Shown here in pieces: positions 9,074 through 55,097 of a DNA stretch of 64,000 nt (positions within the stretch are counted from its first letter, which is position 1; each line of letters starts with the position of its first letter). This DNA is from Syntrophorhabdaceae bacterium. GTDB lineage: Bacteria > Desulfobacterota > Syntrophorhabdia > Syntrophorhabdales > Syntrophorhabdaceae. Position numbers and translations under genes: made by a program. The stretch spans positions 2,240,001 through 2,304,000 of the forward strand of contig OY762209.1 of assembly GCA_963665295.1 (NCBI GenBank), read 5' to 3'. Below the pieces are notes generated by a model, which was not told where the DNA came from, did no database searches, and was given only the letters and a program-made list of their open reading frames with translations.

Positions 9074-9147
9074 CTATTACGCATATGGGCACGGTTTTGG
9101 CCCTCGGGGGCCTGTATCTTATCGTCACGAAATAGGTCGGATGATTG

Positions 9148-10309: not shown

Positions 10310-10310
10310 T

Positions 10311-11873: not shown

Positions 11874-12262
11874 CCCCGACGAAACAACTAATCAAAAGAA
11901 CGAACGATACCGGGAGACTTGCTCCAGGTTGGCCCCTGATCCAACTGGTCCTTATTTCCGGCATCCACTGATTAAGATATTCTGATTGTGCCGGGCGGAG
12001 TAGGCGGGGGCATTGAGCGAGGGCTTCAGATGTGCCCGGCTGTGAAGGGGTGTGGACCGGAACCGTACTAATGTACGGAGGAGGGCTCGCCCCTTTGCAG
12101 AGGGGTGCATATGGAGTTCTCGTTTAATACCCCCGCCTATCCACCAAAACAGCCTTCTTTTTTCCCATTCCCAACAAACACGGCAAACACCAGGGACTCG
12201 CGCTGCCCGGGGAATATATCCGGTCTGGACAAAGGACCTCCTTCTGTATTTAAATATCCCTT

Positions 12263-32912: not shown

Positions 32913-33911
32913 TTAGTGTACCCCGCCATCGCTCGTTGATAATGGCTTATTGATCCAGACGGCGTCAGGCAGTGACGCCGGTTTCGGCATCCTCCCCTTG
33001 AACCGTTCCGGATGTTTTTCATACGCAGCCCGCAGTACGTCCGTACGACCTTCAATGATCCTCAACGCTCTTCCATAATGGACGTCCTCGGGGGTGAGAA
33101 GACCTATCCCCGAATGGTAATGCTCGGTATTGTACCAGGGGAAGAATGTCTGGCAAAAGGCCCGGGCATCCTCAATGGAGCCGAACCTTTGAGGGAACTC
33201 GGGCCGGTACTTCATGGTCTTGAACTGAGATTCGGAATAGGGGTTGTCATTACTGACCGAAGGCCTCGAATGGCTCTTGGTGACCCCGAGATCGGCCATG
33301 AGCAGGGCGACGGGTTTCGACGTCATACTCGACCCCCTGTCCGCATGGATCAGGAGCTTACCGGGCTCTATCATTTGCTTCTCGCAGGTCTCCGCGATCA
33401 GTTTGCGAGCAAGGGCGGCAAGTTCCCTGTGGGCCACCATCCACCCCACCACATAGCGGCTGTAGATGTCGAGGATCACATAGAGGTAGTAGTAGGTCCA
33501 TTTTACGGAACCCTTGAGCTTCGTGATATCCCAGCTCCACGCCTCGTTGGGCGCCTTCGCGAGGATCTCCGGTTTTGCGTACCGGGGACGGGAGACCTGC
33601 CTCCTCCTTTCTTTCAGCTCACCTTCTTCTTCAAGGATCCGGTACATGGTGCGCACTGAACAGAGATAGCTCTTCTCGTCCAGGAGGGCCGCGTAGATTT
33701 CCCGGGGTGCTTTATCGATGAAGCGGTCCGAATGAAGGATATCAAGTACATCGTTCCGTTCCCCGAAGGAGAGGGCCAAGGGAGAGAGACGGTTCAAAGG
33801 TTCCTTCTCTTTCGGATGCTGCCACCGGTAAAAGCCCGCACGGGATACGTCGAGGGCGTTGCAGGCAGGGCGGATACCCACTTCATGGGCAAGCGATTGC
33901 GTGATGTTCAT
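32913..33911 (-). CDS. IS3 transposase OrfB (integrase core)
   Basis: WSWDIT, HADRGS, DNPYSESQFKTMK. Confidence 0.92.
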   Translation of the reverse strand: MNITQSLAHEVGIRPACNALDVSRAGFYRWQHPKEKEPLNRLSPLALSFGERNDVLDILHSDRFIDKAPREIYAALLDEKSYLCSVRTMYRILEEEGELKERRRQVSRPRYAKPEILAKAPNEAWSWDITKLKGSVKWTYYYLYVILDIYSRYVVGWMVAHRELAALARKLIAETCEKQMIEPGKLLIHADRGSSMTSKPVALLMADLGVTKSHSRPSVSNDNPYSESQFKTMKYRPEFPQRFGSIEDARAFCQTFFPWYNTEHYHSGIGLLTPEDVHYGRALRIIEGRTDVLRAAYEKHPERFKGRMPKPASLPDAVWINKPLSTSDGGVH

Positions 33912-34305
33912 GACTTCTCCTCGCTCGACCCCTTGAGCAGCTCGGCCACTTTTTTTGGACCTCGATAATGAGCTCCGCCTGTTTCAGTTTATGGGTGAGC
34001 CTCGTGTTCTCCTTTTCCAGTTCGATGGTGCGACGGATAAGGGGATCAGGCTTTTGTGTGACGGGTCCTCTCTTTTTCGGGATGAGGCCCTGGTGAACCT
34101 GACGCCGCCATGAGGTGAGGCTCGATGAATAAAGTCCCTCTCTGCGCAGAAGCGCCCCTATCTCACCCTTCCCGGTACAGTTCTCCACCTCCTTGAGGAT
34201 ACGGAGCTTGTACGCCGCGGTGAATTTCCGGCGAACTGCCTTTTCCGGTACTTCCGGATCGGGGACTACCCTTGGTGATGCCATGACTGATTTCTTTTCT
34301 TCCAC
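33883..34305 (-). CDS. IS3 transposase OrfA
   Basis: RRKFTAAYKLRIL, LLRREGLYSS.L..WR, coiled coil. Confidence 0.88.
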   Translation of the reverse strand: MEEKKSVMASPRVVPDPEVPEKAVRRKFTAAYKLRILKEVENCTGKGEIGALLRREGLYSSSLTSWRRQVHQGLIPKKRGPVTQKPDPLIRRTIELEKENTRLTHKLKQAELIIEVQKKWPSCSRGRARRSHEHHAIACP

Positions 34306-34715: not shown

Positions 34716-34744
34716 TTGACAGTGGTAACCTATTCTGGTAACAT
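34716..34744 (+). promoter_or_regulatory. sigma70 promoter of the five-gene operon
   Basis: TTGACA-17-TAACAT with extended TG, about 90 bp upstream of ATG 34833. Confidence 0.7.
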
Positions 34745-34832
34745 CCGCTTAAGAACACGTTAGGCGATAGAAATAAGACGCAGCTTCGGTCAACAATGGA
34801 AGCCTGAGTTGAATAATGGTCAAGGCAGATGT

Positions 34833-35831
34833 ATGCGTTATTTCGGGTCAAAAGCATCTACGGTAGAGAAAGTTTATGAGCTTATCTCGCGCCGAGTACC
34901 GTCTGGATCATTCTGTGATCCATTTGGTGGCATTGGAGTGGTCGGGTCTTTCTTCAAGAACAAAGGCTACAGCGTCTGGACTGGTGATGCTCTGAGTTTT
35001 GCCTACTATTTCCAAATTGCGCGGATAGAAACCAACGTAATGCCACGCTTCGAGGGTGTCGTTAAAGCCCTGGCGCTGCGAACGCCCAGTGAAATAGCTG
35101 ACCGACTAAATTCCGCGAATCTCTCAGACGGATGGTTCGTGACTGAGTATGCAGAAAAACGACAATTTTTTACCAAAGACAACGCAAGACGCATATACGC
35201 GTGTATGACGTTAATACGTGATTGGGCTCAGGCTGGCAGCCTCAACAAAAAGGAGCATGCAATTCTATTGGCTTCGTTAATCGACAGCATCGATAGAGTC
35301 GCGAATACCGCGGGAACCTATTATGCGTATTTGAAGACGTGGCATGAAAAGGCACTGAGACCATTTCATTTTAGGTTACTTACTCATATCGTAGGGAATG
35401 AAGATTGTCACTGCTTTCTTGGAGATGCCAAGCGTCTTCTGAGCCAGCGGGCCTTTGACATAGTCTATCTTGATCCGCCATACAACGAGCGTTGTTATTC
35501 AAGATACTATCACCTACCAGAGGCAATAGCACGCGATGAGGTATCCGAGGCTCACGGGAAATCGGGAATCATGGAAGGAGAGAAACATGTTTCGGATTTC
35601 AACAAGCATTCGAAGGCTATGGATGCACTAAGGGAGACTCTCCGCAACGCCAGTTTTCGCCTTTTAGTATTTCATTACTCAGACGATGGCCTTATCAACC
35701 CAAGCGATATAAGAGGCATCCTTGGTTCCCGTGGAGAAATTGATGAGTATGTCATAGGTGGTAAAGGTTATACCACGAGACGCGGGCATAGGACTGTAAC
35801 CCACCGCCTTTACCTTGTCAGTAATGAGTAA
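34833..35831 (+). CDS. DNA adenine methyltransferase (D12/FokI-like, alpha motif order)
   Basis: MRYFGSK, DPFGGIGVVG, FFT.DNA, NTAGTYYAYLK, YLDPPYN.R.Y.RYYH. Confidence 0.9.
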   Translation: MRYFGSKASTVEKVYELISRRVPSGSFCDPFGGIGVVGSFFKNKGYSVWTGDALSFAYYFQIARIETNVMPRFEGVVKALALRTPSEIADRLNSANLSDGWFVTEYAEKRQFFTKDNARRIYACMTLIRDWAQAGSLNKKEHAILLASLIDSIDRVANTAGTYYAYLKTWHEKALRPFHFRLLTHIVGNEDCHCFLGDAKRLLSQRAFDIVYLDPPYNERCYSRYYHLPEAIARDEVSEAHGKSGIMEGEKHVSDFNKHSKAMDALRETLRNASFRLLVFHYSDDGLINPSDIRGILGSRGEIDEYVIGGKGYTTRRGHRTVTHRLYLVSNE

Positions 35832-36765
35832 ATTTTTGCCCAGCTGGGACACGGATGATGTCAATACTTTGGTTGATTTCTCCAGGATTGAATTAATCGT
35901 GGCAGACTTAGATGGAACCTTGCTTTCTCCAGGTCAAATGGCGTTATACGAAACGATAAGGAGCCTTAACAGGAGTCTTGGATCCTATGGCGTTGCCTTA
36001 ACTCTGGCGACTGGCCGGAGCCTCTCTGGGGTGCATAACCTGCTCAGTACGCTATCGCTTCGGAAGGGCGTCCCTATAATCCTATATAATGGCAGTCTTG
36101 TGGTGAGGAACAAGACATTCGAAATATTGAGCCGAAAAACCATAGAAACTAACATCTTGCAGGCAATAGTTAATCTTTCCAGCGAATTGGGTGTGCCAGC
36201 GCTTGCGTACTTCTATACCGGCCCAACCAATCAACTGGCCTCATCATCTGATAACATCGAGTATGTGTTAGGCTGGGCAGAGGGAGGCCATGTTAGTCAT
36301 GAGTTTAATGGAATGCGGGTGGACTGGCAGGGTGGGCACAAAATCACCGAGAAAGCTAATCCTTCTGCCATACTGATTGACATTTCAACCAAAGGCGATT
36401 GTGCTCTTGCCATTCTGAGGCGCCTGCAAAAGGTCGTGGGTATTTCTGTTACTCATAGCGGCCAATCTTACCTGGAGATTAGGCCGGCGGATAGCAACAA
36501 AGGCGTGGCACTTGAAATGGCGGCGAGACTCTCTAGGATTGATCGATATAATATTCTGGCGATTGGGGACAACGATAATGATTTGGAAATGCTGAAGTGG
36601 GCTGGTATAGGGGTTGCCGTTGCTGGTTCTTCACCAAATGCTTTGCTCAGTGCAGATTATGTTAGCCGGCATGGGGTGATAGAAGGCGCAATAGAGGTTC
36701 TGCGTGTGGTAAGAAATGCACGACGATACTTCAGGCACATCGCAAAGGAGAGAAACAGTGAGTGA
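35824..36765 (+). CDS. Cof-type HAD hydrolase (C2B cap)
   Basis: DLDGTLL, LATGR, YNG, YLEI...NKG, GDNDNDLEML; overlaps both neighbours. Confidence 0.9.
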   Translation: MSKFLPSWDTDDVNTLVDFSRIELIVADLDGTLLSPGQMALYETIRSLNRSLGSYGVALTLATGRSLSGVHNLLSTLSLRKGVPIILYNGSLVVRNKTFEILSRKTIETNILQAIVNLSSELGVPALAYFYTGPTNQLASSSDNIEYVLGWAEGGHVSHEFNGMRVDWQGGHKITEKANPSAILIDISTKGDCALAILRRLQKVVGISVTHSGQSYLEIRPADSNKGVALEMAARLSRIDRYNILAIGDNDNDLEMLKWAGIGVAVAGSSPNALLSADYVSRHGVIEGAIEVLRVVRNARRYFRHIAKERNSE

Positions 36766-39322
36766 GATTGAACGCTGGGTTAAAGAACTGGAATCCTTCA
36801 AGGACAAATCCGAAAAATACTTCATGACGCAAGCAGAATTCGAAGCTGGATTAGATAGCGTTACTGGATTAGCCGATAGTCCGGTAGATGCCGTTCAGTA
36901 CCATATTGTCGGAAGTGCACCTTTTAACGCTATAGACATAGGTAGGCCAGGCACAGGGGATGCGATGTATGTCGATACAGTTACTATGGCTGATCCCCGC
37001 GGCTCGACATGCAAAACGTCGATTTGGACAAAACGAAATGCAGGAGTTGCGATTCATGCGTCCGCAGCCCTCGCTAAGGATTCTCTTGGCAAGCTAATAA
37101 AGGGGTATTGGAAGCCAGATCTGTTGGACAATAAAGCAAAATTACCTTCGCTCTTGATACCTAGGGCAACGCAAGTACTCGAAGATACAATACTGGACTT
37201 TGCAAAGACACGTGAAAGGACATTTCTTTTCTTTTGTGATCTAGACAAATTTAAATTGGTTAACGACACCTATGGAGAAAATGTGGGTGATCGTGTCATT
37301 TTGGAATTTGCATCAATTATCGAGAGAACTGTGATTCCCAATGCTGTAGCGCTTCACAGAAGCGGTGATGAGTTCATCGTATTTTGCCCCACAGACACTG
37401 TCGAAAGCGCGCTTTTTGTCGCCCACAAGATTATGAGAGAAGTGCGACAATACGACTTTCAAATCGGCAATTTGACAACAGATGTGTCCATTGGCATTAA
37501 AATAGTCGACCGTGAAACTCCTTGGAAGTCGTATAAGGATTTAGAGGATATGGCCGAAAAGGCATTGAAACCTAGCGGTCAAGGAAAGAGGCGTGGTATG
37601 GCCAGGTTTGCTGATGAGGTTGACCAAGTTGGCCTCCCGCTCACGAATGATTTATCTAAGTCGCTAGCCGTTTGTGTCGTGAAAAGCGGCATGGGCGCAG
37701 ATAACCCATTTGTGAGCCCTTGGCTGAACATGATATCGGAGCATGTGGAAATTTCAATCCAGGAAAGCTTCCCGAATATCTCCGGCATAAAAGAAGAGGT
37801 CGATACGATTGTAGACTGGATTAAGCCAAGTGTAGCAGTGGACACATTGCATGCAGGTACCCTTGGAAGCGAAGCGTCCTTGAAACCGTATTTTTCTCCA
37901 ATTGATATGGCGTTGGCAACAGCCCACGGAGTTTTTCGGGCGAGCCTGATGTCGGGCAATCAATCATTTAAAGACAAGAGCCTCAAGATATATTTTGATA
38001 GCAGTCAAGGCGCCTGTCAGTTGTGCCTGTGTCCGGATGGTGAAGTAATTATGCAATTTGGGACCGAGCCGTCCAGCTGGCCAGATACCATCGATTTAGG
38101 CGGATTTTTTCGGTCGTATGACGATAAACCCCGAAAAGCAATGGACTCTCGGGCAGCGCTTTTGGTGAAGATAGGGCATTCCAAGTTGGAATTGCCTGTC
38201 GCCATATTTGGAGAGATTATCGTTGTCGATGATCGTCCTACGCAGGGGGGCGGGTTGCCTGATTTTTGGGAAGCCACCATCGCCAGATTGGTTGCCCGCG
38301 TAGAATCCAATGCCAATATAATGGCGGTTTATATACTTGGAGAACATAAGTATGCCGCACAAACGATCGGACTGCTAAGAGATGTCGGGAACTGGGCTGA
38401 GAAAGCTGAGAGTATTGCGTCTAAGACGGGTATGTCCATTCATAGTATTTCTACCGCAGCCAGTCGTCTTAGCGGGAAGATTGTCTTTCCAGAAGACATT
38501 CGCCATCTATGCAATAATCTGATGAGCGTTCTTCTCGGTCGGCGTCTGCTTTATGATGTCATGTTGCCTGTTTTTTCGACAGAGAAATATCGAACCCTCC
38601 ACAGAGAACTGCTCATGGAAGGCATTGCCTTGTTAAGGGAGGACGGGTGTCGTGTGAAGACTATCGCGGAAGCATATCCCGTGGTCCTTGAAATCGCTCG
38701 CAAGGCGTCCCACAAGGCAAGGATCAAAGATCAAGCAGGGATGGAATTAAAAGAGCTTGTGGATTTCAAGGTTCTTCTGACCAACCCAAATCAGGATCTC
38801 GTCCCGTTGTTCTATCAGGAAGAGAAAGATTCTCTAGAGGGGTACTTCACGAGAGAATTTCAAACTGATACTGGTCTTTTCTTGAGTAAATTTAAAGAAG
38901 GAGGACAACTCGATGCGGTATTGACCCATCTTTCTACGCATATTCGTGACTTAAACCATCAGTTTGCCACTCGCAGGGGCATCTTGGTGGTTCCGCATGA
39001 TGTGGAAGAAGGGCATGACATTAGACCTCTGGGATTGATATCTATTCGTATTTTTCCAAGGTTTATGGATAACCGCGTACTCCTATATTACAGTTACACT
39101 TGGCGAACAGTAGAAGCCTTGGTTGGTTTCCCGTATAGCGTTTACGGATCAGTCAGGTTTAGTCAATACCTAACCGAAGAGGTTAAAAGGCGCTTACCCA
39201 GAGAACAGTCTAGACGGATTGAGATGGGGGAAGTGTCATACATAGCTCACAGTTTACATATATTCATGGATGATTATGGCGAAAACATTGCTCGCAGGAT
39301 TGTCGACGATGCCAGTCTCTGA
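36758..39322 (+). CDS. Multidomain protein: GGDEF domain + unknown middle region + divergent thymidylate-synthase-like domain
   Basis: DLDKFKLVNDTYG..VGD and RSGDEF; C-terminal QLDAV...TRR...WRTVE...GFPYS...SLHIF; GTG start behind AAGGAG. Confidence 0.8.
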   Translation: MSEIERWVKELESFKDKSEKYFMTQAEFEAGLDSVTGLADSPVDAVQYHIVGSAPFNAIDIGRPGTGDAMYVDTVTMADPRGSTCKTSIWTKRNAGVAIHASAALAKDSLGKLIKGYWKPDLLDNKAKLPSLLIPRATQVLEDTILDFAKTRERTFLFFCDLDKFKLVNDTYGENVGDRVILEFASIIERTVIPNAVALHRSGDEFIVFCPTDTVESALFVAHKIMREVRQYDFQIGNLTTDVSIGIKIVDRETPWKSYKDLEDMAEKALKPSGQGKRRGMARFADEVDQVGLPLTNDLSKSLAVCVVKSGMGADNPFVSPWLNMISEHVEISIQESFPNISGIKEEVDTIVDWIKPSVAVDTLHAGTLGSEASLKPYFSPIDMALATAHGVFRASLMSGNQSFKDKSLKIYFDSSQGACQLCLCPDGEVIMQFGTEPSSWPDTIDLGGFFRSYDDKPRKAMDSRAALLVKIGHSKLELPVAIFGEIIVVDDRPTQGGGLPDFWEATIARLVARVESNANIMAVYILGEHKYAAQTIGLLRDVGNWAEKAESIASKTGMSIHSISTAASRLSGKIVFPEDIRHLCNNLMSVLLGRRLLYDVMLPVFSTEKYRTLHRELLMEGIALLREDGCRVKTIAEAYPVVLEIARKASHKARIKDQAGMELKELVDFKVLLTNPNQDLVPLFYQEEKDSLEGYFTREFQTDTGLFLSKFKEGGQLDAVLTHLSTHIRDLNHQFATRRGILVVPHDVEEGHDIRPLGLISIRIFPRFMDNRVLLYYSYTWRTVEALVGFPYSVYGSVRFSQYLTEEVKRRLPREQSRRIEMGEVSYIAHSLHIFMDDYGENIARRIVDDASL

Positions 39323-40085
39323 ATTTAGCACATGCATTCTGGTGTGCGATAGAGCGGATTTTGAGTTCTTCGTCTCAAATTCTCTATGTGATGATCGTCC
39401 CTCCGAAGCCAACGGATTATATCTGATTCCGGTTGCGACTGGAATAGAGGAGCTAGAGGCGATACTGAATGCCGTGCCGCAAAGACACGTTCGGCGTTAT
39501 TTGGACCGGTTTTACCTGTGGGGTCATGATAATTCCCCCGATGCTTGGCAACGGATGGTTGATAAATTTTTTGAGCTTATCGCTTATAAATATGAGATAT
39601 TTATTGACGTAGAGCGCAACAGGGAGAACATACGTAATCTATTGCGGTTCTTTCATCAGTTAAGCTACCGAACTCAGCGAGAAGAAATAATTGATTATGG
39701 ATGTGGGACGGGTCTCTCTTTGACGGTCGCAGATGGAGTGAAAAGTAAACTCATTGGGGTGGATAGAAGCCCAGCAATGCGCCATATTGCCCGCAGCAAG
39801 GGAATGACTGTCTGGAGTTTCCGCACGTTGGAGAGCAAGCCCCATAATTCTCTGGCGGGGGCCTTCGCGTCCTATGTTCTGCACCTGTCACCGAGTTTGG
39901 ATGGGATCGGTTTACTTTGGGACCGGATCGAAAAAGGAGGCGTCTTAGTTGCCAATTTCCATAAGAATCAGGGCGTAGAGTGGGTGACTGAGTATCTGCG
40001 ACGTAAGAGGTGTCTATTCGAGAACATTGAACCACCGATAGGTTCTGAGAGGCATGGAGTATACATCGCGTATGTTAAGTCGTAA
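39309..40085 (+). CDS. Class I SAM-dependent methyltransferase
   Basis: IIDYGCGTG, GVDRSPAM, ASYVLH, GGVLV. Confidence 0.85.
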   Translation: MPVSEFSTCILVCDRADFEFFVSNSLCDDRPSEANGLYLIPVATGIEELEAILNAVPQRHVRRYLDRFYLWGHDNSPDAWQRMVDKFFELIAYKYEIFIDVERNRENIRNLLRFFHQLSYRTQREEIIDYGCGTGLSLTVADGVKSKLIGVDRSPAMRHIARSKGMTVWSFRTLESKPHNSLAGAFASYVLHLSPSLDGIGLLWDRIEKGGVLVANFHKNQGVEWVTEYLRRKRCLFENIEPPIGSERHGVYIAYVKS

Positions 40086-41895
40086 AGTGAAGCAGCCAGG
40101 CTTTGTCCAATTCGATAAGTATTCGGATTATTTTACAAACCGGTCCGAATTGGATATTGATTTCGCTAACGCTCGCATCCTAGCAGACATCGGGCTTCTG
40201 CCCCTCTATAAGGTTGGCGAGAAAGAAGTTGTCTTAGTGAATGACTTAGACTCTATTATTCCAATCCTTTCAAAAATGTCCCTATTATACGACACTTCAT
40301 TGTTTGCAGACAGTTTTCTAAGTAAAGGTGGGCCTCTGAAAATTTCTCCGCGCAAAGGTACCATGGTTGATATATTACCGATGAGCTCAAGAATGCAGAT
40401 TGATCCTGTCTTTTATGCGGCAGCTCGAAATCTCATGACCTTCATTTGTAAATTGGTCGATGACTCCGAGACTGAGAATACTACATCGCTTGATTATTTC
40501 CTTCCAGGGCGTGTATCAACGTCATCTGATCAAGTGAGACGCTATATTGAGAGACAGAAACGACGAGCGGACCTCACCTACTTATCACATGCAAGCCAGT
40601 TCGCAAATACGGCCTACTATATGGGGTCGAAGCGCATGTTAAGGGCGTTCCTGGTTGAGGCGATAGCGGAAGTGTTACCCGATGATGGCACGGTTGTCGA
40701 TTTGATGTGTGGCTCCGGTGCTGCTTCGGGAGCCTTCAATAAAGTCTGGAATACGATAGCCTCAGACGCTCAAGAATTTTGTACTACCCTAGCTCTCGTG
40801 CAGGGTGGTGGATTCTCGGCTGGCCAAGCGCAGAAATTGCTGGATCTAATTCTCCCAATCGCTCGTGACCATGCCAATATATTGCGAGGCAAGCTTCTTT
40901 ATTTTCTTCAGTGGGAGGACAGAATCCTTCACGGTGACACCGGGGCCAAATTGCTGTCGGAATACGAAAGATTTGTGATGTCCTTCCCGACCTATCCGCA
41001 CGGAACTGCTCATGGTGGATGGGACCCTCTGCAGGAAGTAGCTATGCGAAAGAAAGACATTCACCTCTACCCCTATTGTCTATTTGTCGCGTACTATGCA
41101 AATTTGTATTTTGGGTTGAGGCAGTCGGTGGAGATCGACAGTTTAAGATATGCACTAGACCAGGTAAAGGACGCGGTAGAAAAACAATGGGGAATGGGAG
41201 CTCTGATCGCGACGCTGAGTTCTTTGGGCACAACTTATGCTGGCCACTTTGCTCAACCTGTAGCAACTTCAACCAGACCTCTCAGTTTGCAGACGTTTTC
41301 AAAGATTTTAGAGATCAGAAGTTTTTCCATAATCCACGAGTTCAGCGTTAGGTTGCTTAGTCTGGCGGCTGAAAGTGAACGATCGAAAAATCCCATTGAG
41401 GTCATACCCGGGAGATGGTCAGACACCATGCCAGTCCTTGACAAAATTCTTGATAATCGCAAGAGAACCCTTGTCTACCTTGACGCGCCATATACCAGAG
41501 AGGAATACAGCCGTTATTATCATATTCTTGAGACCATTGTTTCTTATGGGTACCCTTCCTGTATAGGAGTGGGAAAAATTCCAGACAAACAGGCGAAGGA
41601 AAGGTTTCGTTCGGAGTTCTTTACAAAAGACAAAGCCAAGTTCGAGGCGGCTTTAGTCAAAATCATTGCAGAGGTCTTGAGCCGTGGCTGGATATGCGCT
41701 TGGAGTTATTCAGATTCTGGAAAAGCGAGCATCGTAACAGTTGTCGAGCAAGTACTGGGTAACGTGGACTGTCGCGCTCGGTCATTTTCGGTCCCTTATG
41801 AACATAAATCGCAAGGTGGTAAATCACCCAAGAAAGTGATCGAGTACCTCGTCATATTTCTGCCAGAGGAGACAAAAGGTTCGTTCGACATTTGA
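40054..41895 (+). CDS. Second DNA adenine methyltransferase with N-terminal extension
   Basis: YMGSK, DLMCGSG, GHFAQ, YLDAPY...YSRYYH.LET. Confidence 0.85.
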   Translation: MEYTSRMLSRKVKQPGFVQFDKYSDYFTNRSELDIDFANARILADIGLLPLYKVGEKEVVLVNDLDSIIPILSKMSLLYDTSLFADSFLSKGGPLKISPRKGTMVDILPMSSRMQIDPVFYAAARNLMTFICKLVDDSETENTTSLDYFLPGRVSTSSDQVRRYIERQKRRADLTYLSHASQFANTAYYMGSKRMLRAFLVEAIAEVLPDDGTVVDLMCGSGAASGAFNKVWNTIASDAQEFCTTLALVQGGGFSAGQAQKLLDLILPIARDHANILRGKLLYFLQWEDRILHGDTGAKLLSEYERFVMSFPTYPHGTAHGGWDPLQEVAMRKKDIHLYPYCLFVAYYANLYFGLRQSVEIDSLRYALDQVKDAVEKQWGMGALIATLSSLGTTYAGHFAQPVATSTRPLSLQTFSKILEIRSFSIIHEFSVRLLSLAAESERSKNPIEVIPGRWSDTMPVLDKILDNRKRTLVYLDAPYTREEYSRYYHILETIVSYGYPSCIGVGKIPDKQAKERFRSEFFTKDKAKFEAALVKIIAEVLSRGWICAWSYSDSGKASIVTVVEQVLGNVDCRARSFSVPYEHKSQGGKSPKKVIEYLVIFLPEETKGSFDI

Positions 41896-42123: not shown

Positions 42124-43865
42124 CCTGACTTCCCGCCCTATTGTAACGAGGCCGGCCCCCTTACCTCCAGCCTCGCATAAAGTTCCATCTGTTTCTTCGT
42201 CATCTCCCCCACCATGAGACGCTGCCCCGGCACTTCGTAACATTCGATGACATCAAGCTCATCCAGGACTTCCTGCAGCGTGTAATCTTTGAAGAGGTTG
42301 CTCTCCTGCATCTTCCTGGTGATGTGAGATAAGAAGATAAGGGCGATGAACTGGACAAAGAGCTTGCCGTCGAGACTCTGCTCGGAGGAGACGGCAAGCC
42401 TGCGTACGTTCAGCCGTTCCTTCAGGTTCTCGAAGGCCTTCTCCACCAGGTCCTTGTTCCGGTAGATGGTAAGCGCTTCAAGGGGGTCTTTTATTTCGTT
42501 GCTTAGGAGGGCAAAGTATCCGTAATTGCGTTTCGCCTCTATGAGAACCTCTTCTTTGGCAACCACTTTTGTCCCCCGGACCGGCGTACTCTTCACCTCG
42601 AAGTATTTCGCATAGTATTTCTCATGATCCGGATAGCGAGTACCGCGTTCCAGTTCTTCCTGCCAATCAGAGAGACGGGTAGTGAAGGCCAGCTCATCCT
42701 CTAAGGCTCTCTCCGGAGAGAAATACAGATGAAGATACATCCGGCGGTCCTCCGCGAGGGTGTCTCCTTTGTGGGGCCGATCCTGTACATAGTCCCAGGT
42801 GATCGGCAAAGAATAGGCATAGAGCCCATAGGTCTTACTGTAATGGGTGAAGCTCCGCATCTTCTCCCGGACGGGGTCAAGGTGCCTCTCCACGAACGTA
42901 AGGGGCAGCCGTGCGGCAATGAGGAACTTCATATGATGTTTATACAGGTCGTTGATATTGGCCGCACTGTAGAAACCCCGGTCCAGGACCACCTTGATCT
43001 TTTCATAACCCAGGGCGTTCATGTCGCTGAGCAATCTCCTCAATGTCTTCACATCGGGGATGTTGCCCGGGAGCTTCCGGTAATAGAAGGGCAGGCGTGA
43101 CTGCTGTCCGAAGAGGAGTGCAAGGTTGATCTGGGGAAGGTGCTCATGGTCCTTGTTCTTCCCGTAGCGTACCTGCCGCAGGCACTGGGAGTAACTGGAG
43201 ATGGAGGTGCTGTCATAGGCGAGATATTCCTTCTCTACCCGGCGCTTCCCCTGAAGGGTAAAGAACCGCTGTCTTCCTTCCTCGGTGATCGCGGCAAAGA
43301 GGTCGCTACTCCTCTGGGAGGAGATGACCTCCCCATGTGGATGCCAATGAACGTGAGCCCACCGGGGGAAGCGGCTCAAGGGGTTCTTGTCCTCCAATAT
43401 GAGGTAATAGGCGAGGGAGAGGATCTTACGATAGCTATCGGGGAAACAGGTCCTCAAATCCTTTGTCACCCCTATCTCTTCCCCGATACGGTCGAAGAGG
43501 TAGGTGGCCCCATAAAACAACCGGGCAGTCCGGGTGATGGGCACCGGGCCAGGCTTGATCGTCTTTGGCTCCACCTTCTTTTTCCTGGTGGGGATGATTT
43601 CCCCAGTCTCTTCGTCTACCCTTCCGATGCACACACGCTTTGCCCTGGACTGCTTCCTCTCCTTATCCCAGAATGAGACCGATTCATAGGCATACCTGAC
43701 CCCGGTCTTCTTATTGGTCTGATAGACGATCGCCATGCATTCCCTCCTTCATCGTTACAACACTATAACTTGTAACGATGACAAATGCAAGGGGAATCAC
43801 ACCTAATTCTATGTTTATTAATGGGTTAGATGTGTTTCCTCGTTATAATTGCGCGGGAAGTCGGG
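42124..43865 (-). mobile_element. IS1634-family element
   Basis: IRs CCTGACTTCCCGC / GCGGGAAGTCGGG; flanks differ (no target duplication). Confidence 0.88.
42138..43736 (-). CDS. IS1634 transposase
   Basis: YDSTSISS, YGKNKD...LPQINL, DRGFYS, YRNKDLVEKAF..LK. Confidence 0.9.
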   Translation of the reverse strand: MAIVYQTNKKTGVRYAYESVSFWDKERKQSRAKRVCIGRVDEETGEIIPTRKKKVEPKTIKPGPVPITRTARLFYGATYLFDRIGEEIGVTKDLRTCFPDSYRKILSLAYYLILEDKNPLSRFPRWAHVHWHPHGEVISSQRSSDLFAAITEEGRQRFFTLQGKRRVEKEYLAYDSTSISSYSQCLRQVRYGKNKDHEHLPQINLALLFGQQSRLPFYYRKLPGNIPDVKTLRRLLSDMNALGYEKIKVVLDRGFYSAANINDLYKHHMKFLIAARLPLTFVERHLDPVREKMRSFTHYSKTYGLYAYSLPITWDYVQDRPHKGDTLAEDRRMYLHLYFSPERALEDELAFTTRLSDWQEELERGTRYPDHEKYYAKYFEVKSTPVRGTKVVAKEEVLIEAKRNYGYFALLSNEIKDPLEALTIYRNKDLVEKAFENLKERLNVRRLAVSSEQSLDGKLFVQFIALIFLSHITRKMQESNLFKDYTLQEVLDELDVIECYEVPGQRLMVGEMTKKQMELYARLEVRGPASLQ

Positions 43866-44466
43866 TAATTACTGAGCCGAAAGTAGCGATGGGGTTTTGT
43901 TGCATATCTTCATAACGAACAATATGAATGGGAATCAGCGCTTGTTCCTGCCAGCTTTTTACATGGCTCTTCCACGAAAGTAGTTTTTGGCGAAGTTGTC
44001 CTTCTCTTTTGCCGGCAACCTGTGCTTCTTCATTTATTAATAAGTTTAAAGTCGGATCAATCTTGCCGGCCCTGTGGTTGGCATATGATACGCAAACATC
44101 CATTGGATTGCGTACAAAATAAACAGCACATCTGGAAATTTCTTCCGGGAAAAGGGGTTCACCTGTGGCATTCACAGTGTAAGCATCATGTGTTTTTTTG
44201 TAACTTGTTTCTCCTGCGATTTCTGCTTTATGCGATAAGATCCGATACATATCGGGCCGGTAAAAATCGACCTCTTCGGGTGTAAGTTCGAATGGATTCA
44301 GCCCAATTACATCTTCGAAATCAATGGCATTGCCCGAAAGAGGAGTCGATTCAATCTCTTCTAATGATATCGGATCCGGCTTGTTCTTCAGGTAGTTGGC
44401 CAAGAACATTCGGAACCAGGTATTTCCGGATTTGGGGTAGGATACCAGCCAAACAATGTTCTTCAT
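43866..44466 (-). pseudogene. PAPS-dependent sulfotransferase, 3' truncated by IS1634
   Basis: WLVSYPKSGNTW, KTH, VRNPMDVCVS, RYEDM; ORF runs into the IS end. Confidence 0.85.
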
Positions 44467-45296
44467 TGGTCGATCTCTTTTTTAATGCATTTCATGGTTT
44501 CGTAAATATCACAAGAAGCAGGGCGGAAAATTTGGGTGACACGAACGTTACCTGCCAATTTAATTAATTGTTTGAAGTAGGTTTTTTCTGTTTCGGGCAT
44601 TCCCTTTAAGTACATTCTCCGGTAAATCTGACTGCGTAATGCATTGTACTTAAACATCCCGCTGATTTTATTCACTTCGAATGTATCTTTATTGTGTTTG
44701 CAAAGGATGAACAGATGATCTAAGTGAAGTTCAGCCGAAGAAGATTCCTGAATCGGGAGATAGAATTTATTGATGGAAGGTCTGATCATTTCAAGATTAT
44801 TATTCGTAATCTTCAATTTTAGGAGAGAATCGTCCCATAACTTCATTTTGGTTTTTATCGGAATGATAGCGGTTACTGGCCCGTTCATCCGAACAGGTGT
44901 GACATCATCGTTAATAAAACACCCGCCGTTCTGACAGAAAGCAGCCGTTACTGATGATTTACCGGAGCCGGAGTACCCGCAGATTAAGATGCCTTTCCCA
45001 TCGTATTCAAATGAGCAACCGTGGAAAGGCAAAATACCTTGCTGATGCAGTACAGCACCCAATATTGGGCCATTCAGAAAAAGTTTGATGGAAGCCATAT
45101 CTGCGTTTTCATGCGGATGAATAGACACATGATTCCCATCTCTCACGCGAAAGCTCGCGACATGATCAATATTCATTATAAAGTCACTCTCATCTACCTG
45201 AAGATGTGGAAAAGATAAACGTGCATTTGAGAGATTGCCTACTTCTTCACGAGAAAAATTGAGATACTCCAGGGCGACAGGAAAACTAAAATCCAT
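44463..45296 (-). CDS. HPr-kinase-like peptide kinase (lasso-cluster type)
   Basis: LHQQGILPFHG, GYSGSGKSS, NDD, KLWDD. Confidence 0.8.
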   Translation of the reverse strand: MDFSFPVALEYLNFSREEVGNLSNARLSFPHLQVDESDFIMNIDHVASFRVRDGNHVSIHPHENADMASIKLFLNGPILGAVLHQQGILPFHGCSFEYDGKGILICGYSGSGKSSVTAAFCQNGGCFINDDVTPVRMNGPVTAIIPIKTKMKLWDDSLLKLKITNNNLEMIRPSINKFYLPIQESSSAELHLDHLFILCKHNKDTFEVNKISGMFKYNALRSQIYRRMYLKGMPETEKTYFKQLIKLAGNVRVTQIFRPASCDIYETMKCIKKEIDQ

Positions 45297-48720: not shown

Positions 48721-48895
48721 CTATGAATGCTTGGCTCAACAATAATCGATGCGCTGTTACGTCGGACATCTTTATGACAAAAATTCTTTGACTATTTCGG
48801 TCCATAGTGTCAGAATTGAACCATCCAGAGAACATATTGGTTCAGCAGAGCTTGCGCGGAAAGTTGTCCGTATATTATACGCTGGGAAGGGCAAA

Positions 48896-50899
48896 ATGAA
48901 GATCAAATCCATGAGAATCAGGAATTTTAAGACTTTTGATGAAGAAGGAATTTTGTTAAGTCTGAAGGATTTGACAGCCTTGGTCGGCGAAAACAGCACG
49001 GGAAAATCAAATGTTCTGGAAGCTCTAGATTTGTTTTTCAATTTTAGTACGTCAAAGATTTCAAGAGAGTCGTTTCATCATGATGATTCCACCAGAGAGA
49101 TTTCAACTGAAGTCAAGTTTGGAATGCTTACTGATATTGAGAAGGAAAAGTTCAAGATTCATCTTAACGAAAAAGAGGAGCTGGAAATAAAGCAGATAAT
49201 AAGATTGAGTTCTGTGGAGGAGGACGAAGAGGATCTGAAGCCAAAGTACCAAGAGAGTAAGCATGGGACCAGATGGGAAGCAGAATCAGAGTGGGCTCGG
49301 TTAGGCCCAAAGCCTCCCACCAAGAACAATATCAAGACTTGGTGGAAGCAGGATCTAAAAATAGGCAATTTTGATTTCAAGAGTCTCTTCGAAAAACAGG
49401 ATGGCGATATTGAACCGCTCGTTTATCAGGTTAAGCTGGAGCAGTTGTGGAATGAACACTTTGACGATATCCCGAAGGAAAAGAGAACCGGAGATGAAAA
49501 AGTTCTTGGGTGGAAAAACAAACTTAAGGGAAATCTACCAAAATATTTCTACATACCGGCAATAAAGGACGTGAACGACGACCTGAAAGTATTAAAGACT
49601 AATCCGTTTGGCGAAATAGTGAGCTGGCTTACTCAGAACATCACGGCAGATATAGAGAGGGATTTCAAAGAAAAGACCGAGCAAATCTTTATGGAGGTGA
49701 TGGGCGCTGTAGACAAAGACAATGAGGGCAAATCAAAGATCGCCTTCTTGAATGAGAAGTTGAATGCTAATCTTGGGGTGAACATTGACTGTAAACTCGA
49801 GTTGAAATTCGGGACTCCGCAGATATCCGATGTAATCTTCCCTTCTCCTCAGCTATATGCCGACGACGGGTATTATTCAATGATCGATCTAAAAGGGAAT
49901 GGCCTGCAAAGGTTATGCGTCATTTCACTACTTCGAACATATAATGACGTAAAGAAGCGGGTGGAGGATGTTGACAGAAACGTCGTAATAGCGATTGAGG
50001 AGCCGGAAATCTATCTGCACCCCCCAATCAAAAGAGCCACCTACAAGCTTTTACGTTCGTTGTCAGAGCAGAGTGATCAGATAATCTATTCGACTCACGA
50101 TAGCTATTTCGTTTCTGTTGAACATTTCGATGAAATCAGATTATTCAACAAAGTCAAAGAAGGAAAACCTGTAACAAAAATCTATGAATTCGGAATAGAG
50201 AAACTGACAAAGTATTATGCCGATCATTACGGGATTAATGTCGATGAAAAAAGTCTGAGGCATCGATTCGCTCATATCTGTGACGAAACGAAAAACGAGG
50301 GTTTTTTTGCAAACAAAGTGGTTTTAATAGAGGGTGAAACCGAAAAATACGCATTGCCTATCTATTTTGATCGTGTTGGATTTGATGTGGACAGCGAAAG
50401 GGTGGCGATAATATCCGCCGGGTCCGTGGACAACATCAGTTACCTCTATCTTATTTTTAATGAATTTCATATCCCTTGCTATGTAATTTTTGATGGCGAT
50501 AAACCCAGCATCGACTATGAGGAATTAAAGAAAAAGGAACGAGAGAAAGAACGACAGGCTATTTTGGGGAAAAGCCGAAGAAACAAGGAGTTGCTGGCAT
50601 TTGTCGGCGAGACCGTTGATAAGGAAGCGAAATTTCTTTTTCCTGTAACTGCCGTAAAAGATACGTACGCTGTTTGGGAGCAAGATTTTGAGCATACATT
50701 TCATAGGCCTGTCGACGTGTATGAGAAAATCAAGGGGGAAGCGACCAATCTCTATGGAACAAAAAGTAAACCCTTGGCGGGAAGACATTTCGCTTCAGAG
50801 CTAGTCGAGAAATATCCGGACAGAATTAGTCCTCATATAAATGAATTGGTCCAAATGATAAGGTCATGCAATTGGAAGAAGTCATGTCTTTTGGAATAG
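48896..50899 (+). CDS. OLD-family ATP-dependent nuclease (ABC ATPase + TOPRIM)
   Basis: IRNFK, GENSTGKS, KGNGLQR, IEEPEIYLHP, STH, LIEGETE, FDGD. Confidence 0.9.
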   Translation: MKIKSMRIRNFKTFDEEGILLSLKDLTALVGENSTGKSNVLEALDLFFNFSTSKISRESFHHDDSTREISTEVKFGMLTDIEKEKFKIHLNEKEELEIKQIIRLSSVEEDEEDLKPKYQESKHGTRWEAESEWARLGPKPPTKNNIKTWWKQDLKIGNFDFKSLFEKQDGDIEPLVYQVKLEQLWNEHFDDIPKEKRTGDEKVLGWKNKLKGNLPKYFYIPAIKDVNDDLKVLKTNPFGEIVSWLTQNITADIERDFKEKTEQIFMEVMGAVDKDNEGKSKIAFLNEKLNANLGVNIDCKLELKFGTPQISDVIFPSPQLYADDGYYSMIDLKGNGLQRLCVISLLRTYNDVKKRVEDVDRNVVIAIEEPEIYLHPPIKRATYKLLRSLSEQSDQIIYSTHDSYFVSVEHFDEIRLFNKVKEGKPVTKIYEFGIEKLTKYYADHYGINVDEKSLRHRFAHICDETKNEGFFANKVVLIEGETEKYALPIYFDRVGFDVDSERVAIISAGSVDNISYLYLIFNEFHIPCYVIFDGDKPSIDYEELKKKEREKERQAILGKSRRNKELLAFVGETVDKEAKFLFPVTAVKDTYAVWEQDFEHTFHRPVDVYEKIKGEATNLYGTKSKPLAGRHFASELVEKYPDRISPHINELVQMIRSCNWKKSCLLE

Positions 50900-51156
50900 C
50901 AATATTTCGGCCAATTGGAAGATGATCTGGCCCATACGGACGTAACTTTTGTCTGACAGAAACTGTGGCAAGAGCCGAGAACAATTTAGTAGATTATCGG
51001 CTTCGAGTCGAAAACACTGAGCCGAGGATTTTTGCTTGAGTTATCTCCTAAGTAGCGCGAAAATTAACTGTCAGAGGCACATGAGCATGAGCAGATTGGT
51101 TCGACGAAATGAAAAAGAACAAGGGCATCACGCCGCTTTAACGGCTATTTATTGCA

Positions 51157-53576: not shown

Positions 53577-55097
53577 TCACGGAGCCCTCGCCCCATTGCG
53601 ATACAGTGCCGCCTGTGCCGTCATGGTATCCGACACCAGGAGCGTCTCCAGGAACTTCCGTGGATCGTTCCCTTGCCTCATGGAAGTAATGATGAGACTC
53701 GGCAGGATACTGTGGGTCTTCAGTCCCGTTGCCGACCGCGTACCGAACATGAGCTTCCTCATGATCACCAGGAAGCGGATCGACTGTTCTGCCTGGTTGT
53801 TGGTAGGTGGTACTCCCGGATAGCGAAGGAACGTGAAGAGAAACTTCCGGTCTTTGCCGGTAAGGAAGGTACGGAGCCCTTCCGCCGGCTTATACTTGAG
53901 GGGCTTTGCACATATCTTCCCGAGGGTTGCTCTCAATTGCTTCTCGATGCGGGGAGCATCTCCCCACTCTCTCTTTCCCTTAAGAAGATCCCCGCCCGCG
54001 GCGCAGGCATCCGAGAAGAGCCTCCCGACCGCATCACAGAACGCCTCCGCTTTTGTATCTCTTGTCTCCATGAGGACGAGCTCCCGGGTCAACTCCCTGG
54101 CCCTGGTGATAAGGTGGGCAAGGCATGTCTGCCTTTCTCTCGCATGAACTCCGTTATACGCGGCATAGCGGTCGGTGATGAGCACCCCGTCGAAGTTGTC
54201 CCCGAGAAGATGTTGAGCCACGTCTGTCGAGCGGTGCCGGTCGATATGGAAGAGGGCAAGATCGGCGTTTCCCGCATACCACGCGTAATGACCGGTCCCG
54301 TCGTTCCTCCATGATGTCTCATCGGCATGAACTATTTCCGAGGCGCGTATCTTCTCCCGGAGGTCTTCATAAAGAGGCGCCCCCCTTTTCGCCGCAGCCC
54401 TGTCAAACCCCACTGCCGAAGCAGGGACAAAGGCAAGGCCGAAGATCTCCCTCATAACTTCCTCTACCTTTCGATAGCTCATACCTATCCTGTACCGCAA
54501 GTATAAGGCAACGGATTTCGTAACCGGTCCGATAGGAGCATTCGGAAGTTCGTCGGGAGCCGCCTTCACCACAGAACGCCCGCAACGGCTACAGTATGCT
54601 TCCTTATGCACATACCGTCTCACCACCGTGCGGGGTCTTATGACAATGTCTTCCTGCACATGCTCACGGATCCCTTCCCCGGGGACAAGAGGGCCTGACC
54701 CGCAATGGGGGCATCGATCGGGAGCGGGCACGTGAACCGTCGCATCCACGCGGGCAGGCTCGGGCCTGAACCACCCGGGGTGTCCGACCGGAGCGCCGCG
54801 CTTCCTCCCTGCCAAAGAGACCGCATGCTCCGGTTTTTTGTTCGCCTTGAACTGTCTTCGATGCAATGCGGTATTCTTCGCCTTCAGTTCCTCGTTCTCC
54901 TTCTCTAAAAGACGGATACGCTTCATGGTGTCATCCAGCCTGTCCCGGAACACATCGATAATCCGAAGATGCTCTTCGTACACCTCATGGGCCCGCTCAT
55001 ATTCTCCAAAGACCCATAGGGTGGAGAGAAAGTTAAGATGGGGGCAATTGTCCTTATAAAGACAATCGTAGCCGTATGGAGGATAGACCCTCTTCAC
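53577..55097 (-). CDS. IS66 transposase (TnpC-like)
   Basis: Coiled coil, CPHCG zinc finger, HADETSW, TDRYAAY, QTCLAH, PTNNQAEQSIR. Confidence 0.92.
   Translation of the reverse strand: MKRVYPPYGYDCLYKDNCPHLNFLSTLWVFGEYERAHEVYEEHLRIIDVFRDRLDDTMKRIRLLEKENEELKAKNTALHRRQFKANKKPEHAVSLAGRKRGAPVGHPGWFRPEPARVDATVHVPAPDRCPHCGSGPLVPGEGIREHVQEDIVIRPRTVVRRYVHKEAYCSRCGRSVVKAAPDELPNAPIGPVTKSVALYLRYRIGMSYRKVEEVMREIFGLAFVPASAVGFDRAAAKRGAPLYEDLREKIRASEIVHADETSWRNDGTGHYAWYAGNADLALFHIDRHRSTDVAQHLLGDNFDGVLITDRYAAYNGVHARERQTCLAHLITRARELTRELVLMETRDTKAEAFCDAVGRLFSDACAAGGDLLKGKREWGDAPRIEKQLRATLGKICAKPLKYKPAEGLRTFLTGKDRKFLFTFLRYPGVPPTNNQAEQSIRFLVIMRKLMFGTRSATGLKTHSILPSLIITSMRQGNDPRKFLETLLVSDTMTAQAALYRNGARAP

Follow-up and report, generated by a model that had tools for sequence, protein, structure and literature searches.

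In a 64,000-nucleotide stretch of the genome of a Syntrophorhabdaceae bacterium (GenBank assembly GCA_963665295.1, contig OY762209.1, positions 2,240,001 to 2,304,000; hereafter the window, with positions counted from its first letter), five plus-strand genes form a 7.1-kb cassette in which every gene overlaps the next. They encode a D12-class DNA methylase (g1), a HAD phosphatase (g2), a fusion of a GGDEF cyclase with a thymidylate synthase (TS)-like domain (g3), a class I S-adenosylmethionine (SAM)-dependent methylase (g4) and a second, long D12-class methylase (g5). Based on conserved gene order, structure models and analogy with described systems, we propose that the five genes constitute one mobile immune cassette acting through a nucleotide alarm with a trigger similar to that of Metis. 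The proposal is tentative, and we give it somewhat less than an even chance of being correct.

Conservation and distribution of the cassette

Loci were collected by scans with an alignment of g3 homologues, which returned 16 loci from species-representative genomes, 79 from metagenomes and one of viral origin, and were analysed by tblastn with the five window proteins; the 96 loci merged into 82 clusters by near-identity. Many of the metagenome contigs are short, and per-gene counts are limited to clusters in which the position could be judged. The order g1-g2-g3-g4-g5 is collinear in all 42 non-redundant clusters for which every position was assessable (42/42), so that the five-gene synteny by which an earlier note on this DNA, made from the sequence alone, had proposed to judge the locus is indeed conserved. 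Taken singly, g1 and g5 stand in the expected place without exception (53/53 and 62/62 clusters), g2 in 58 of 60 clusters (exceptions are L041 and L081/L082, where g2 and g1 are inverted), and g4 in 65 of 67, being missing in L007 and L026. These counts rule out a chance grouping of unrelated genes.

The cassette spans at least eight phyla and one archaeon. Named records belong to the Armatimonadota, Bacteroidota, Acidobacteriota, Lentisphaerae, Planctomycetota, Actinomycetota and Bacillota and to one Methanoregulaceae archaeon; database source names add Sorangium, Nitrospira and Verrucomicrobia. The genome under study harbors one copy, and no match to the middle-plus-TS part of g3 was found in the 40 host relatives searched. 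Out of 1.84 billion representative clusters, a profile of the g3 middle domain detected 222, and almost all of these are proteins of 810-870 aa that have the domain in the same place. The g3 family is thus rare, of fixed architecture and horizontally spread. Longer fused forms of the middle-plus-TS part were not found, which is weak evidence. Among 50,697 records of cultured phages there was no match, and one IMG/VR contig contains the cassette.

Some loci adjoin genes for a relaxase, the TraG coupling protein, ArdC, integrases, resolvases or TniQ, or insertion sequence (IS) elements. One of them lies beside the relaxase gene of the mobilizable plasmid pUSDA123-1 of Bradyrhizobium japonicum USDA 123 (CP126019.1, 342087-357568); in this copy, an IS1380 transposase cuts g3, and g5 is split into two open reading frames (ORFs), the N-terminal part being annotated as a separate hypothetical protein. 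At locus L034, resolvase genes with identical Pfam scores (491-1087, plus strand, and 8503-9099, minus strand) are inverted around the whole five-gene cassette, which suggests that the cassette moves as a discrete unit. In L080, L081 and L082 the cassette is rearranged, with a dUTPase gene directly upstream of g3; in L082, g2 and g1 are found downstream of g5 on the opposite strand.

The central protein g3

The AlphaFold2 (AF2) model of g3, computed from 106 sequences, has a mean predicted local distance difference test score (pLDDT) of 92.8 and a predicted template modelling score (pTM) of 0.90. Its first part (36758..37114, plus strand) is an alpha/beta domain with a long helix, whose helices and strands occupy residues 17-132 of the model, and it precedes the cyclase domain (37115..37615, plus strand; about residues 134-300). 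The latter matches PF00990 at E 1.2e-18 (67.8 bits, cut-off 23.8) and has its catalytic motifs intact: D175-x-D177, N183, D192 and S-G-D-E-F at 216-220. The two metal-binding Asp residues, the base-reading Asn and xGDEF are intact in 68 of 68 loci. Compared with PDB sequences, the family profile of the cyclase retrieves DosC, PleD and comparable proteins with E values of 1e-24 to 1e-21, and the modelled fold matches GGDEF domains and diguanylate cyclases with VIA Z scores of 16-17. No RxxD inhibitory site is present in g3 five residues upstream of the GGDEF motif, where this site usually lies. An mCpol/Cas10-like cyclase, considered owing to a precomputed PF22335 match in two homologues, was rejected, as sequence and fold matches both point to diguanylate cyclases.

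The middle domain (37616..38632, plus strand; residues 300-640) contains the most conserved loop of the protein, the near-invariant D-D-R-P-x-x-G-G-x-L-P-D-F-W-E at residues 505-519. Modelled alone by AF2, the domain reached a pLDDT of 88.5. Foldseek returned no match for it at E <= 0.001, and the best VIA match, to the cobalamin-binding MtrA (5laa_B; Z 8.9, root-mean-square deviation (rmsd) 3.4, 131 aligned residues), concerns a Rossmann-like half, all other rows having Z <= 6.1. The ESM Atlas gave no usable match for this domain or for residues 1-190 of g5.

The C-terminal domain (38633..39322, plus strand) has a TS fold. In sequence, the C-terminus matches TIGR03283, a methanogen model of thymidylate synthase, weakly (E 8.8e-7, 28.6 bits, cut-off 174.55), PF00303 does not match, and a profile of the domain gave chance rows only against PDB sequences at E <= 10. 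In VIA, residues 640-868 superimpose on the flavin-dependent dCMP hydroxylase 9iqc_A (Z 19.9, rmsd 2.4, 197 aligned residues), MilA (5jnh_A, Z 17.8), ThyA (3ix6_B, Z 15.7) and the T4 dCMP hydroxymethylase (6l18_A, Z 14.9); Foldseek matches are likewise dCMP hydroxymethylase and TS. R753, R754, R797, E800 and H848 are invariant, and we take R753-R754 and R797 to be the phosphate-binding arginines of TS. The domain thus resembles the TS/dCMP hydroxymethylase superfamily in its fold, in the Arg-Arg and Arg positions and in the acidic and His positions, but differs in lacking the catalytic Cys, in carrying Ser at the Asn177-equivalent and in being fused to a cyclase. No invariant or near-invariant Cys was found in 33 sequences, and no alignment register supplies one. 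An hhalign alignment to the archaeal-type TS of the host, weak in itself (E 0.006, low probability), places the P-P-C of the host enzyme opposite I-R-P of g3, its Asp opposite Glu800 and its Asn opposite Ser808; the position of TS Asn177 is an invariant Ser in g3. According to a published study, Cys146 (E. coli numbering) is conserved in enzymes of the TS superfamily including the hydroxylases, and Asn177 is the switch between dUMP and dCMP (PMC13326640).

A catalytic thymidylate synthase or hydroxymethylase is ruled out by the absence of the catalytic cysteine. For the same reason we read the domain as binding rather than modifying a nucleotide: judged from sequence and model, it is probably a pseudoenzyme that binds a nucleoside monophosphate and serves as a sensor. 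The earlier idea that the TS fold modifies a pyrimidine nucleotide has accordingly been given up in favor of binding, which is more probable. The host's only PF00303 match is itself weak (27.8 bits) and concerns a thymidylate synthase of the archaeal type that contains P-P-C (ORF 910-1767 of L101, G000:C1:2973850-2977089).

Accessory genes and co-variation of the cyclase

Neighboring genes were analyzed with Pfam (141 ORFs flanking the 16 genome loci), with further family scans and with tblastn. Four recurrent accessory families abut the cassette, namely a patatin phospholipase, a SLATT two-transmembrane (2TM) protein, a dUTPase and an MT-A70 methylase. Counted over the 41 clusters in which 1 kb or more of sequence precedes g1, the patatin is found in 11, the dUTP diphosphatase in 6, the SLATT protein in 2 and the MT-A70 methylase in 1, with no recognized accessory gene in 21. 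The patatin gene is always directly upstream of the cassette and co-oriented with it. Its product matches NF041079, the "CBASS cGAMP-activated phospholipase" (274.6 bits, cut-off 200), where CBASS stands for cyclic-oligonucleotide-based antiphage signaling system and cGAMP for cyclic GMP-AMP, as well as the PADLOC models of CBASS phospholipases (E 1e-87 to 1e-99). The SLATT proteins match PADLOC models of CBASS 2TM effectors (E 1e-10 to 1e-12). By analogy, such exchangeable effectors are hallmarks of nucleotide-signaling defense. The dUTPases score above the cut-offs of NF001862 and TIGR00576 in five of six tested; counting all positions, they adjoin the cassette in eight clusters, either ahead of g1, immediately ahead of g3 or in convergent orientation downstream of g5. 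At three further loci (L036:7830-8372, L048:3395-3946 and L065:11013-11585), small ORFs resembling P-loop ATPases or kinases (AAA_28, AAA_17 and AAA_33) lie directly downstream of g5 and co-oriented with it; those of L048 and L065 are homologous to each other, and this ORF may be a further accessory gene.

In the cyclase, the Watson-Crick-face residue, which is D192 in the window protein, varies with the neighbor. Patatin-linked loci (n=14) have Ser/Thr in 11 cases, Asp in two, Asn in one and no other residue. Where no accessory gene was detected (n=39), Asp prevails with 27 cases, next to eight of Asn, two of Ser/Thr and two others, and dUTPase-linked loci (n=10) have nine Asp, one Asn and neither Ser/Thr nor others. 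The two Ser/Thr exceptions without accessory gene are L071, which duplicates the patatin locus L012 in truncated form, and L024, a 3-kb contig without upstream region; both contigs end before the expected position of the patatin. When duplicates are merged by hand, Ser/Thr is present in 8 of 11 patatin clusters. In 6d9m, the structure of a Hypr GGDEF enzyme, the alignment column of D192 is occupied by Ser. In Hypr enzymes, as stated in the respective paper, this Ser pairs with adenine or guanine, permitting the use of ATP plus GTP and formation of cGAMP, while Asp confers GTP specificity, and Ser functions only in the context of a GGDEF, not a GGEEF, motif (PMC6456294). The whole g3 family has xGDEF and matches this requirement. 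Going by these residues, a cGAMP-type cyclase next to a cGAMP-type phospholipase would be the expected look of a working signal-effector pair.

The window itself holds no homologue or remnant of the patatin, SLATT, dUTPase or MT-A70 genes (tblastn, best E 0.17). Loss of an effector gene to the IS3 insertion upstream of g1 was considered and rejected, since no accessory remnant occurs anywhere in the window. The copy studied here is therefore one without recognizable effector, whose output could be a core protein or the product of a gene at another site of the genome.

Methylases and phosphatase

The product of g1 (34833..35831, plus strand) matches PF02086 at E 1.3e-20 and the PADLOC model MTase_II (PDLC03287) at E 4e-60. 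F-G-G and the D-P-P-Y-N that contains its DPPY motif are invariant in 13 sequences, and there was no match to PDB sequences at E <= 0.01. The 613-aa product of g5 (40054..41895, plus strand) matches the D12 methylase family at E 1.8e-7, and PF02086 is found in 27 of 27 members. It carries an N-terminal extension of about 190 aa, has M-C-G-S-G as motif I and D-A-P-Y as motif IV, and is invariant at D216, C219, G220, G222, D238, D477, P479 and Y480; PDB sequences gave chance antibody rows only at E <= 1. Both proteins keep motif I and D-P/A-P-Y, and both have, after motif IV, the unusual stretch R-x-Y-x-x-Y-Y-H-L-x-E-T. By these sequence features, g1 and g5 are paralogues and keep the motifs of active D12 DNA methylases. 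Two g5 homologues (L003:13270-15150 and L039:4336-6153) contain one in-frame stop each and may be pseudogenes or reflect assembly errors.

For g4 (39309..40085, plus strand), PF13489 (E 1.4e-6) and related families identify a class I SAM-dependent methylase with a conserved D-x-G-C-G-x-G motif, in which the first 110 aa or so are uncharacterized. Fusion of g4 and g5 into one stop-free ORF is seen in six loci (L006, L067, L074, L083, L087 and L098), and because of this fusion we consider that the two proteins work together, as the sequences indicate. The product of g2 (35824..36765, plus strand) is a Cof-type HAD-IIB phosphatase: PF08282 (Hydrolase_3) matches at E 1.9e-40 and TIGR01484 (HAD-IIB) with 86.8 bits (cut-off 41.8), and TIGR00099 reaches 134.9 bits against a cut-off of 137. 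Conserved in 34 sequences are DxDGT, ATGR, K and GDxxND, the HAD catalytic motifs.

Neither the family scans nor PADLOC recognize a nuclease domain or family in any of the five proteins, and the nuclease-free composition of methylase, HAD phosphatase, GGDEF-TS fusion, SAM methylase and methylase that had been read from the sequence agrees with these scans. The nearest nucleases are an OLD protein and an Mrr-nSTAND3 protein 7-10 kb away, past IS elements.

Proposed mechanism and alternatives

In a preprint, Metis is described as sensing N6-methyl-dAMP (m6dAMP) that arises when a lytic phage degrades Dam-methylated host DNA; m6dAMP activates an effector, and a HAD phosphatase clears basal m6dAMP. 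The preprint names types I and II and a predicted type III, and it predicts that some systems encode a DNA methylase of their own (bioRxiv 10.1101/2025.11.05.686725). Our cassette shares with Metis a predicted DNA adenine methylation, a HAD phosphatase, a domain suited to a deoxynucleoside monophosphate and the proposed sensing of genome breakdown.

According to our proposal, the TS-like domain of g3, possibly together with the middle domain, would be the receptor for a deoxynucleoside monophosphate (dNMP). It would probably dimerize as TS enzymes do, so that two cyclase domains are joined when the ligand rises, and the cyclase would then produce a cyclic dinucleotide. For the window protein the expected product is cyclic di-GMP (c-di-GMP), given Asp at the base-reading position, and for the phospholipase-linked relatives a cGAMP-like molecule, given Ser/Thr. 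The cyclic dinucleotide would turn on an effector that kills the cell or arrests its growth. As to the trigger, the cassette methylases would mark the host chromosome, and methylated mononucleotides would become abundant only when a phage shreds it; the g2 phosphatase would clear the basal methylated nucleotide and thereby prevent self-activation. A Metis-like model of this kind would give every core gene a role, because the methylases write the mark, the HAD enzyme clears its basal level and the TS fold senses its rise. Its fullest version is a self-sufficient genome-integrity alarm that lays down its own marks, uses a dead TS fold as receptor for methylated or abnormal dNMPs and has diversified its GGDEF output together with the effector. 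This version is conceivable, though we regard it as doubtful. Three functions had been offered in the earlier note: installation of a base modification, remodeling of the deoxynucleoside triphosphate (dNTP) pool against phage, or coupling of modified-nucleotide sensing to a signal. The last is the one that we favor, and CBASS-type effectors do abut the cassette in other genomes.

Several points weigh against the nucleotide alarm. No recognizable effector accompanies the window copy or 21 of the 41 assessable clusters, and the effector argument is drawn from a minority of loci; moreover, the patatin-linked loci with Ser/Thr belong mostly to one Bacillota-like lineage and perhaps represent only one or two independent events. 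TS folds normally bind pyrimidines, and DPPY methylases usually write N6-methyladenine, so the fit of the ligand is not obvious. The recurrent dUTPase points to dUMP/dUTP chemistry, which the methylated-nucleotide model leaves unexplained. The host encodes 15 other GGDEF proteins, with which a c-di-GMP alarm would have to avoid cross-talk. Known defense genes other than the accessory genes are modest in number in the flanks of relatives: raw counts give clear hits at 3 of the 16 loci from genomes (L001 with SoFic, L010 with PDC-S18 and a type I restriction-modification (RM) system, and L014 with a ParB-methylase), so that the anticipated enrichment in defense islands is borne out only modestly. 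The kinship to Metis has limits as well. Relative to the families described in the preprint, the cassette has no homologue of MisA (a PUA-like plus calcineurin-like NAD+ diphosphatase) or MisC, and family scans at E <= 0.01 detected neither PF00149 nor a PUA-type family in its five proteins; likewise, g2 is of the Cof type (PF08282), whereas MisB is assigned there to PF13419, which is absent among the g2 matches.

In a variant of the proposal the signaling is the same, but the trigger is a nucleotide made by the phage or a pyrimidine metabolism perturbed by it, the TS-like pseudoenzyme binding dUMP, dCMP, or 5-hydroxymethyl or 5-hydroxy pyrimidine dNMPs and the methylases being otherwise employed. 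Many lytic phages make such nucleotides in bulk, the closest structures (dCMP hydroxylase, dCMP/CMP hydroxymethylases and ThyA) all bind pyrimidine mononucleotides, and a genuine dUTP diphosphatase beside the cassette in eight clusters and three positions ties it to dUMP/dUTP. In addition, the equivalent of Asn177, which sets the choice between dUMP and dCMP (PMC13326640), is an invariant Ser in g3. Still, two or three conserved DNA methylases and a HAD phosphatase would be left without a role, and as dUMP and dCMP are normal metabolites the sensor would need a high threshold; all in all we consider this variant rather unlikely. Instead of a nucleotide, incoming DNA might be what is recognized. 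The cassette would then resemble RM or bacteriophage exclusion (BREX) systems with signaling in place of a nuclease: g1 and g4-g5 would methylate host sites, and a methylase complex on unmethylated incoming DNA would activate g3 and an abortive response. Two paralogous D12 methylases with intact motifs in a nuclease-free operon fit this picture, as do the large extra regions of g5, which could read DNA, the presence of the cassette on mobile elements beside other defense genes, and the pairing of methylase and phosphatase, which recalls PglX/PglZ of BREX. The idea is unlikely, however, in that neither the mononucleotide-binding TS fold nor the dUTPase has a function in it, and PADLOC finds no proteins of BREX, of the defense island system associated with restriction-modification (DISARM) or of other systems.

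Two further explanations do without immunity or without a signal. The cassette could be cargo of mobile elements, with orphan methylases shielding the element's DNA from restriction in the recipient and a regulated diguanylate cyclase tuning biofilm formation or conjugation of the host. The mobility genes and IS elements that border some loci, the MT-A70 methylase added in one lineage and the canonical Asp of the window g3, as expected of a c-di-GMP maker, are in line with such a module; but it explains neither the tight, phylum-wide linkage in fixed order of HAD phosphatase, TS-like sensor and methylases nor the abutting CBASS-type phospholipase and 2TM effectors and their co-variation with the specificity residue of the cyclase, and we hold it to be improbable. 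Alternatively, the five genes might be a biosynthetic pathway for an altered nucleoside or nucleotide that serves in base modification, as a chain terminator or in remodeling of the dNTP pool, the TS-like domain holding the substrate, g4 methylating and g2 dephosphorylating it. A TS fold, a SAM methylase of the small-molecule type, a HAD phosphatase and some dUTPases are typical parts of nucleotide metabolism. Yet the TS-like domain is devoid of the nucleophilic cysteine, two loci lack g4, D12 methylases belong to a family of enzymes acting on DNA, and the strictly conserved GGDEF active site would have no role, which makes biosynthesis very improbable.

Comparison with known systems

PADLOC v2.0.0 assigns generic MTase_II/oMTase models to g1 and g5 and weak mad2 matches (E 7e-4 and 9e-3) to the SAM-binding regions of g4 and g5; it has no family for g2 and none for g3 at E <= 0.01. 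Signature proteins of BREX, DISARM or MADS (methylation-associated defense system), i.e. PglZ, BrxC, DrmA-C and Mad1-8, were not detected by PADLOC beyond these mad2 matches, and the five proteins include no cognate restriction endonuclease that would make the methylases part of a type II RM system. No account of this gene combination was found in the literature, the type III locus list of the Metis preprint lying outside the scope of that search. The absence of a full match to a described system, as anticipated in the earlier note, thus stands, and the cassette may be an undescribed system within nucleotide-signaling defense, or more than that if the danger-sensing model is right.

The described systems nearest to it share individual components. 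CBASS has in common with the cassette its effector families, as the patatin passing NF041079 and the 2TM SLATT proteins adjoin cassette relatives, and the implied logic of a cyclase signal followed by an abortive effector. Unlike CBASS, the cassette has a GGDEF domain as cyclase rather than a CD-NTase (SMODS-type), shows no Cap2/Cap3 or HORMA/TRIP13 by PADLOC, and has a core extended by both D12 methylases, the SAM methylase, the HAD phosphatase and the TS-fold domain; CBASS-type effectors were found with its relatives, not with the window copy. From Metis, as described in the preprint, it differs further in that the candidate sensor has a TS fold and the output would be a second messenger instead of direct activation of an effector; judged by its protein families, the cassette is not a member of Metis.

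Hypr GGDEF enzymes (GacA; 6d9m, 5vs9) agree with g3 in GGDEF fold and motifs, and the patatin-linked members of the g3 family have Ser/Thr where Hypr has Ser348. Hypr proteins, however, are housekeeping signaling enzymes with receiver or GAF domains, while the g3 family is fused to a TS fold within a mobile methylase cassette, and the canonical Asp is present in the window protein. Panoptes and type III CRISPR systems likewise employ a palm-domain cyclase of the GGDEF/Cas10 superfamily in immunity, sometimes with a 2TM effector, and the Panoptes paper treats GGDEF as a structural relative of mCpol (PMC12657218). There, mCpol is minimal, has a GGDEF motif that is nearly gone and makes a constitutive decoy signal; g3, on the other hand, is a large multi-domain protein with a canonical GGDEF and candidate ligand-binding domains. 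In the portion of Kaur et al. 2020 that was available, GGDEF domains appear only as rare parts of vWA-MoxR systems.

Gene starts, promoter and surroundings

The ORF listing gives five plus-strand ORFs at 34.8-41.9 kb (34809-35831, 35815-36765, 36716-39322, 39270-40085 and 40054-41895) and no further ORF of at least 200 aa within the cassette interval. For g1, the mechanical ORF begins at TTG 34809; we favor ATG 34833 as start because the g1 homologues begin with MRYFGSK. In g2 the mechanical start is TTG 35815, and the ATG at 35824 overlaps the g1 stop, the junction ATGAGTAA containing the ATG of g2 and the TAA of g1. Similarly, the junction GTGAGTGA at 36758 contains an in-frame GTG of g3 and the TGA of g2; the database copy of g3 (P0001) has 854 aa, consistent with a start at this GTG, and the mechanical ORF begins at ATG 36716. 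An in-frame ATG of g4 at 39309 overlaps the g3 stop at 39322 (mechanical start ATG 39270), and g5 starts at 40054, 32 nt upstream of the end of g4. The five co-oriented genes with overlaps at 35824, 36758, 39309 and 40054, as previously described, are hence confirmed.

A promoter-like site upstream of g1 (34716..34744, plus strand) reads TTGACA-17 nt-TAACAT with TG before the -10 element. Of the sigma70 promoter claimed here, it is true that this TG-extended site is the best one on the plus strand, with 10 of 12 consensus positions; beyond that it is a consensus match only, in a region that holds 19 promoter-like sites compared with 11.6 +/- 3.9 in shuffled sequences. A promoter at this position is plausible from the sequence, but the match proves nothing.

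The GC content is 0.45-0.48 over 35-42 kb; the first 30 kb lie mostly at about 0.53-0.58. The flanks contain IS630-like, IS3, IS4-like, IS21 and two IS66 elements as well as the OLD nuclease and the Mrr-nSTAND3 protein, and none of the five cassette genes is interrupted by an IS. Both the AT-rich, uninterrupted cassette amid disrupted DNA and its location in an island with OLD and STAND genes had been inferred correctly. On the left the cassette is bounded by an IS3-family element with transposase orfA and orfB (32913..34305, minus strand; rve, rve_3 and HTH_Tnp_1), and on the right by an IS4-like DDE transposase (42138..43736, minus strand; PF01609, E 1e-12). A pocket of GC 0.41 between the IS4-like and IS21 elements (43843-45296, minus strand) contains two genes overlapping by 4 nt, one for a 207-aa sulfotransferase and one for a 277-aa HPr-kinase-C-like protein. 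At 48749-53418, with a GC content of 0.41-0.44, the OLD-family nuclease, a 716-aa protein with AAA_15 and an OLD-like TOPRIM, precedes the 753-aa protein with Mrr-cat and an nSTAND3 NTPase; this looks like a separate defense gene pair in the same island. Two tandem 506-aa ORFs for IS66-family transposases (53577-55097 and 55524-57044, minus strand) have nearly equal Pfam scores and are probably copies of one IS. Outside the low-GC island (10170-14281), a UvrD/Rep helicase adjoins a PIF1-like helicase that has a WYL domain at its C-terminus, and the two may be another conflict-related pair.

Significance

The annotation labels "DNA adenine methylase", "HAD-IIB family hydrolase", "GGDEF domain-containing protein" and "methyltransferase" conceal a system behind familiar names. 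As the cassette is compact, intact, present in many phyla and absent from PADLOC v2.0.0, its function is directly testable by cloning. If our proposal is true, GGDEF enzymes, the textbook regulators of bacterial lifestyle, would also be generators of immune signals, and an Asp-to-Ser/Thr switch would have created cGAMP synthases matched to a cGAMP-activated phospholipase. A thymidylate-synthase pseudoenzyme would be a new immune sensor fold. The cassette would then also be a natural example of what the Metis authors only predict in their preprint, a system installing the mark whose breakdown product it senses. It would represent the first union of Metis-type danger sensing with a CBASS-type second messenger, and the first bona fide GGDEF enzyme and TS pseudoenzyme in immunity.

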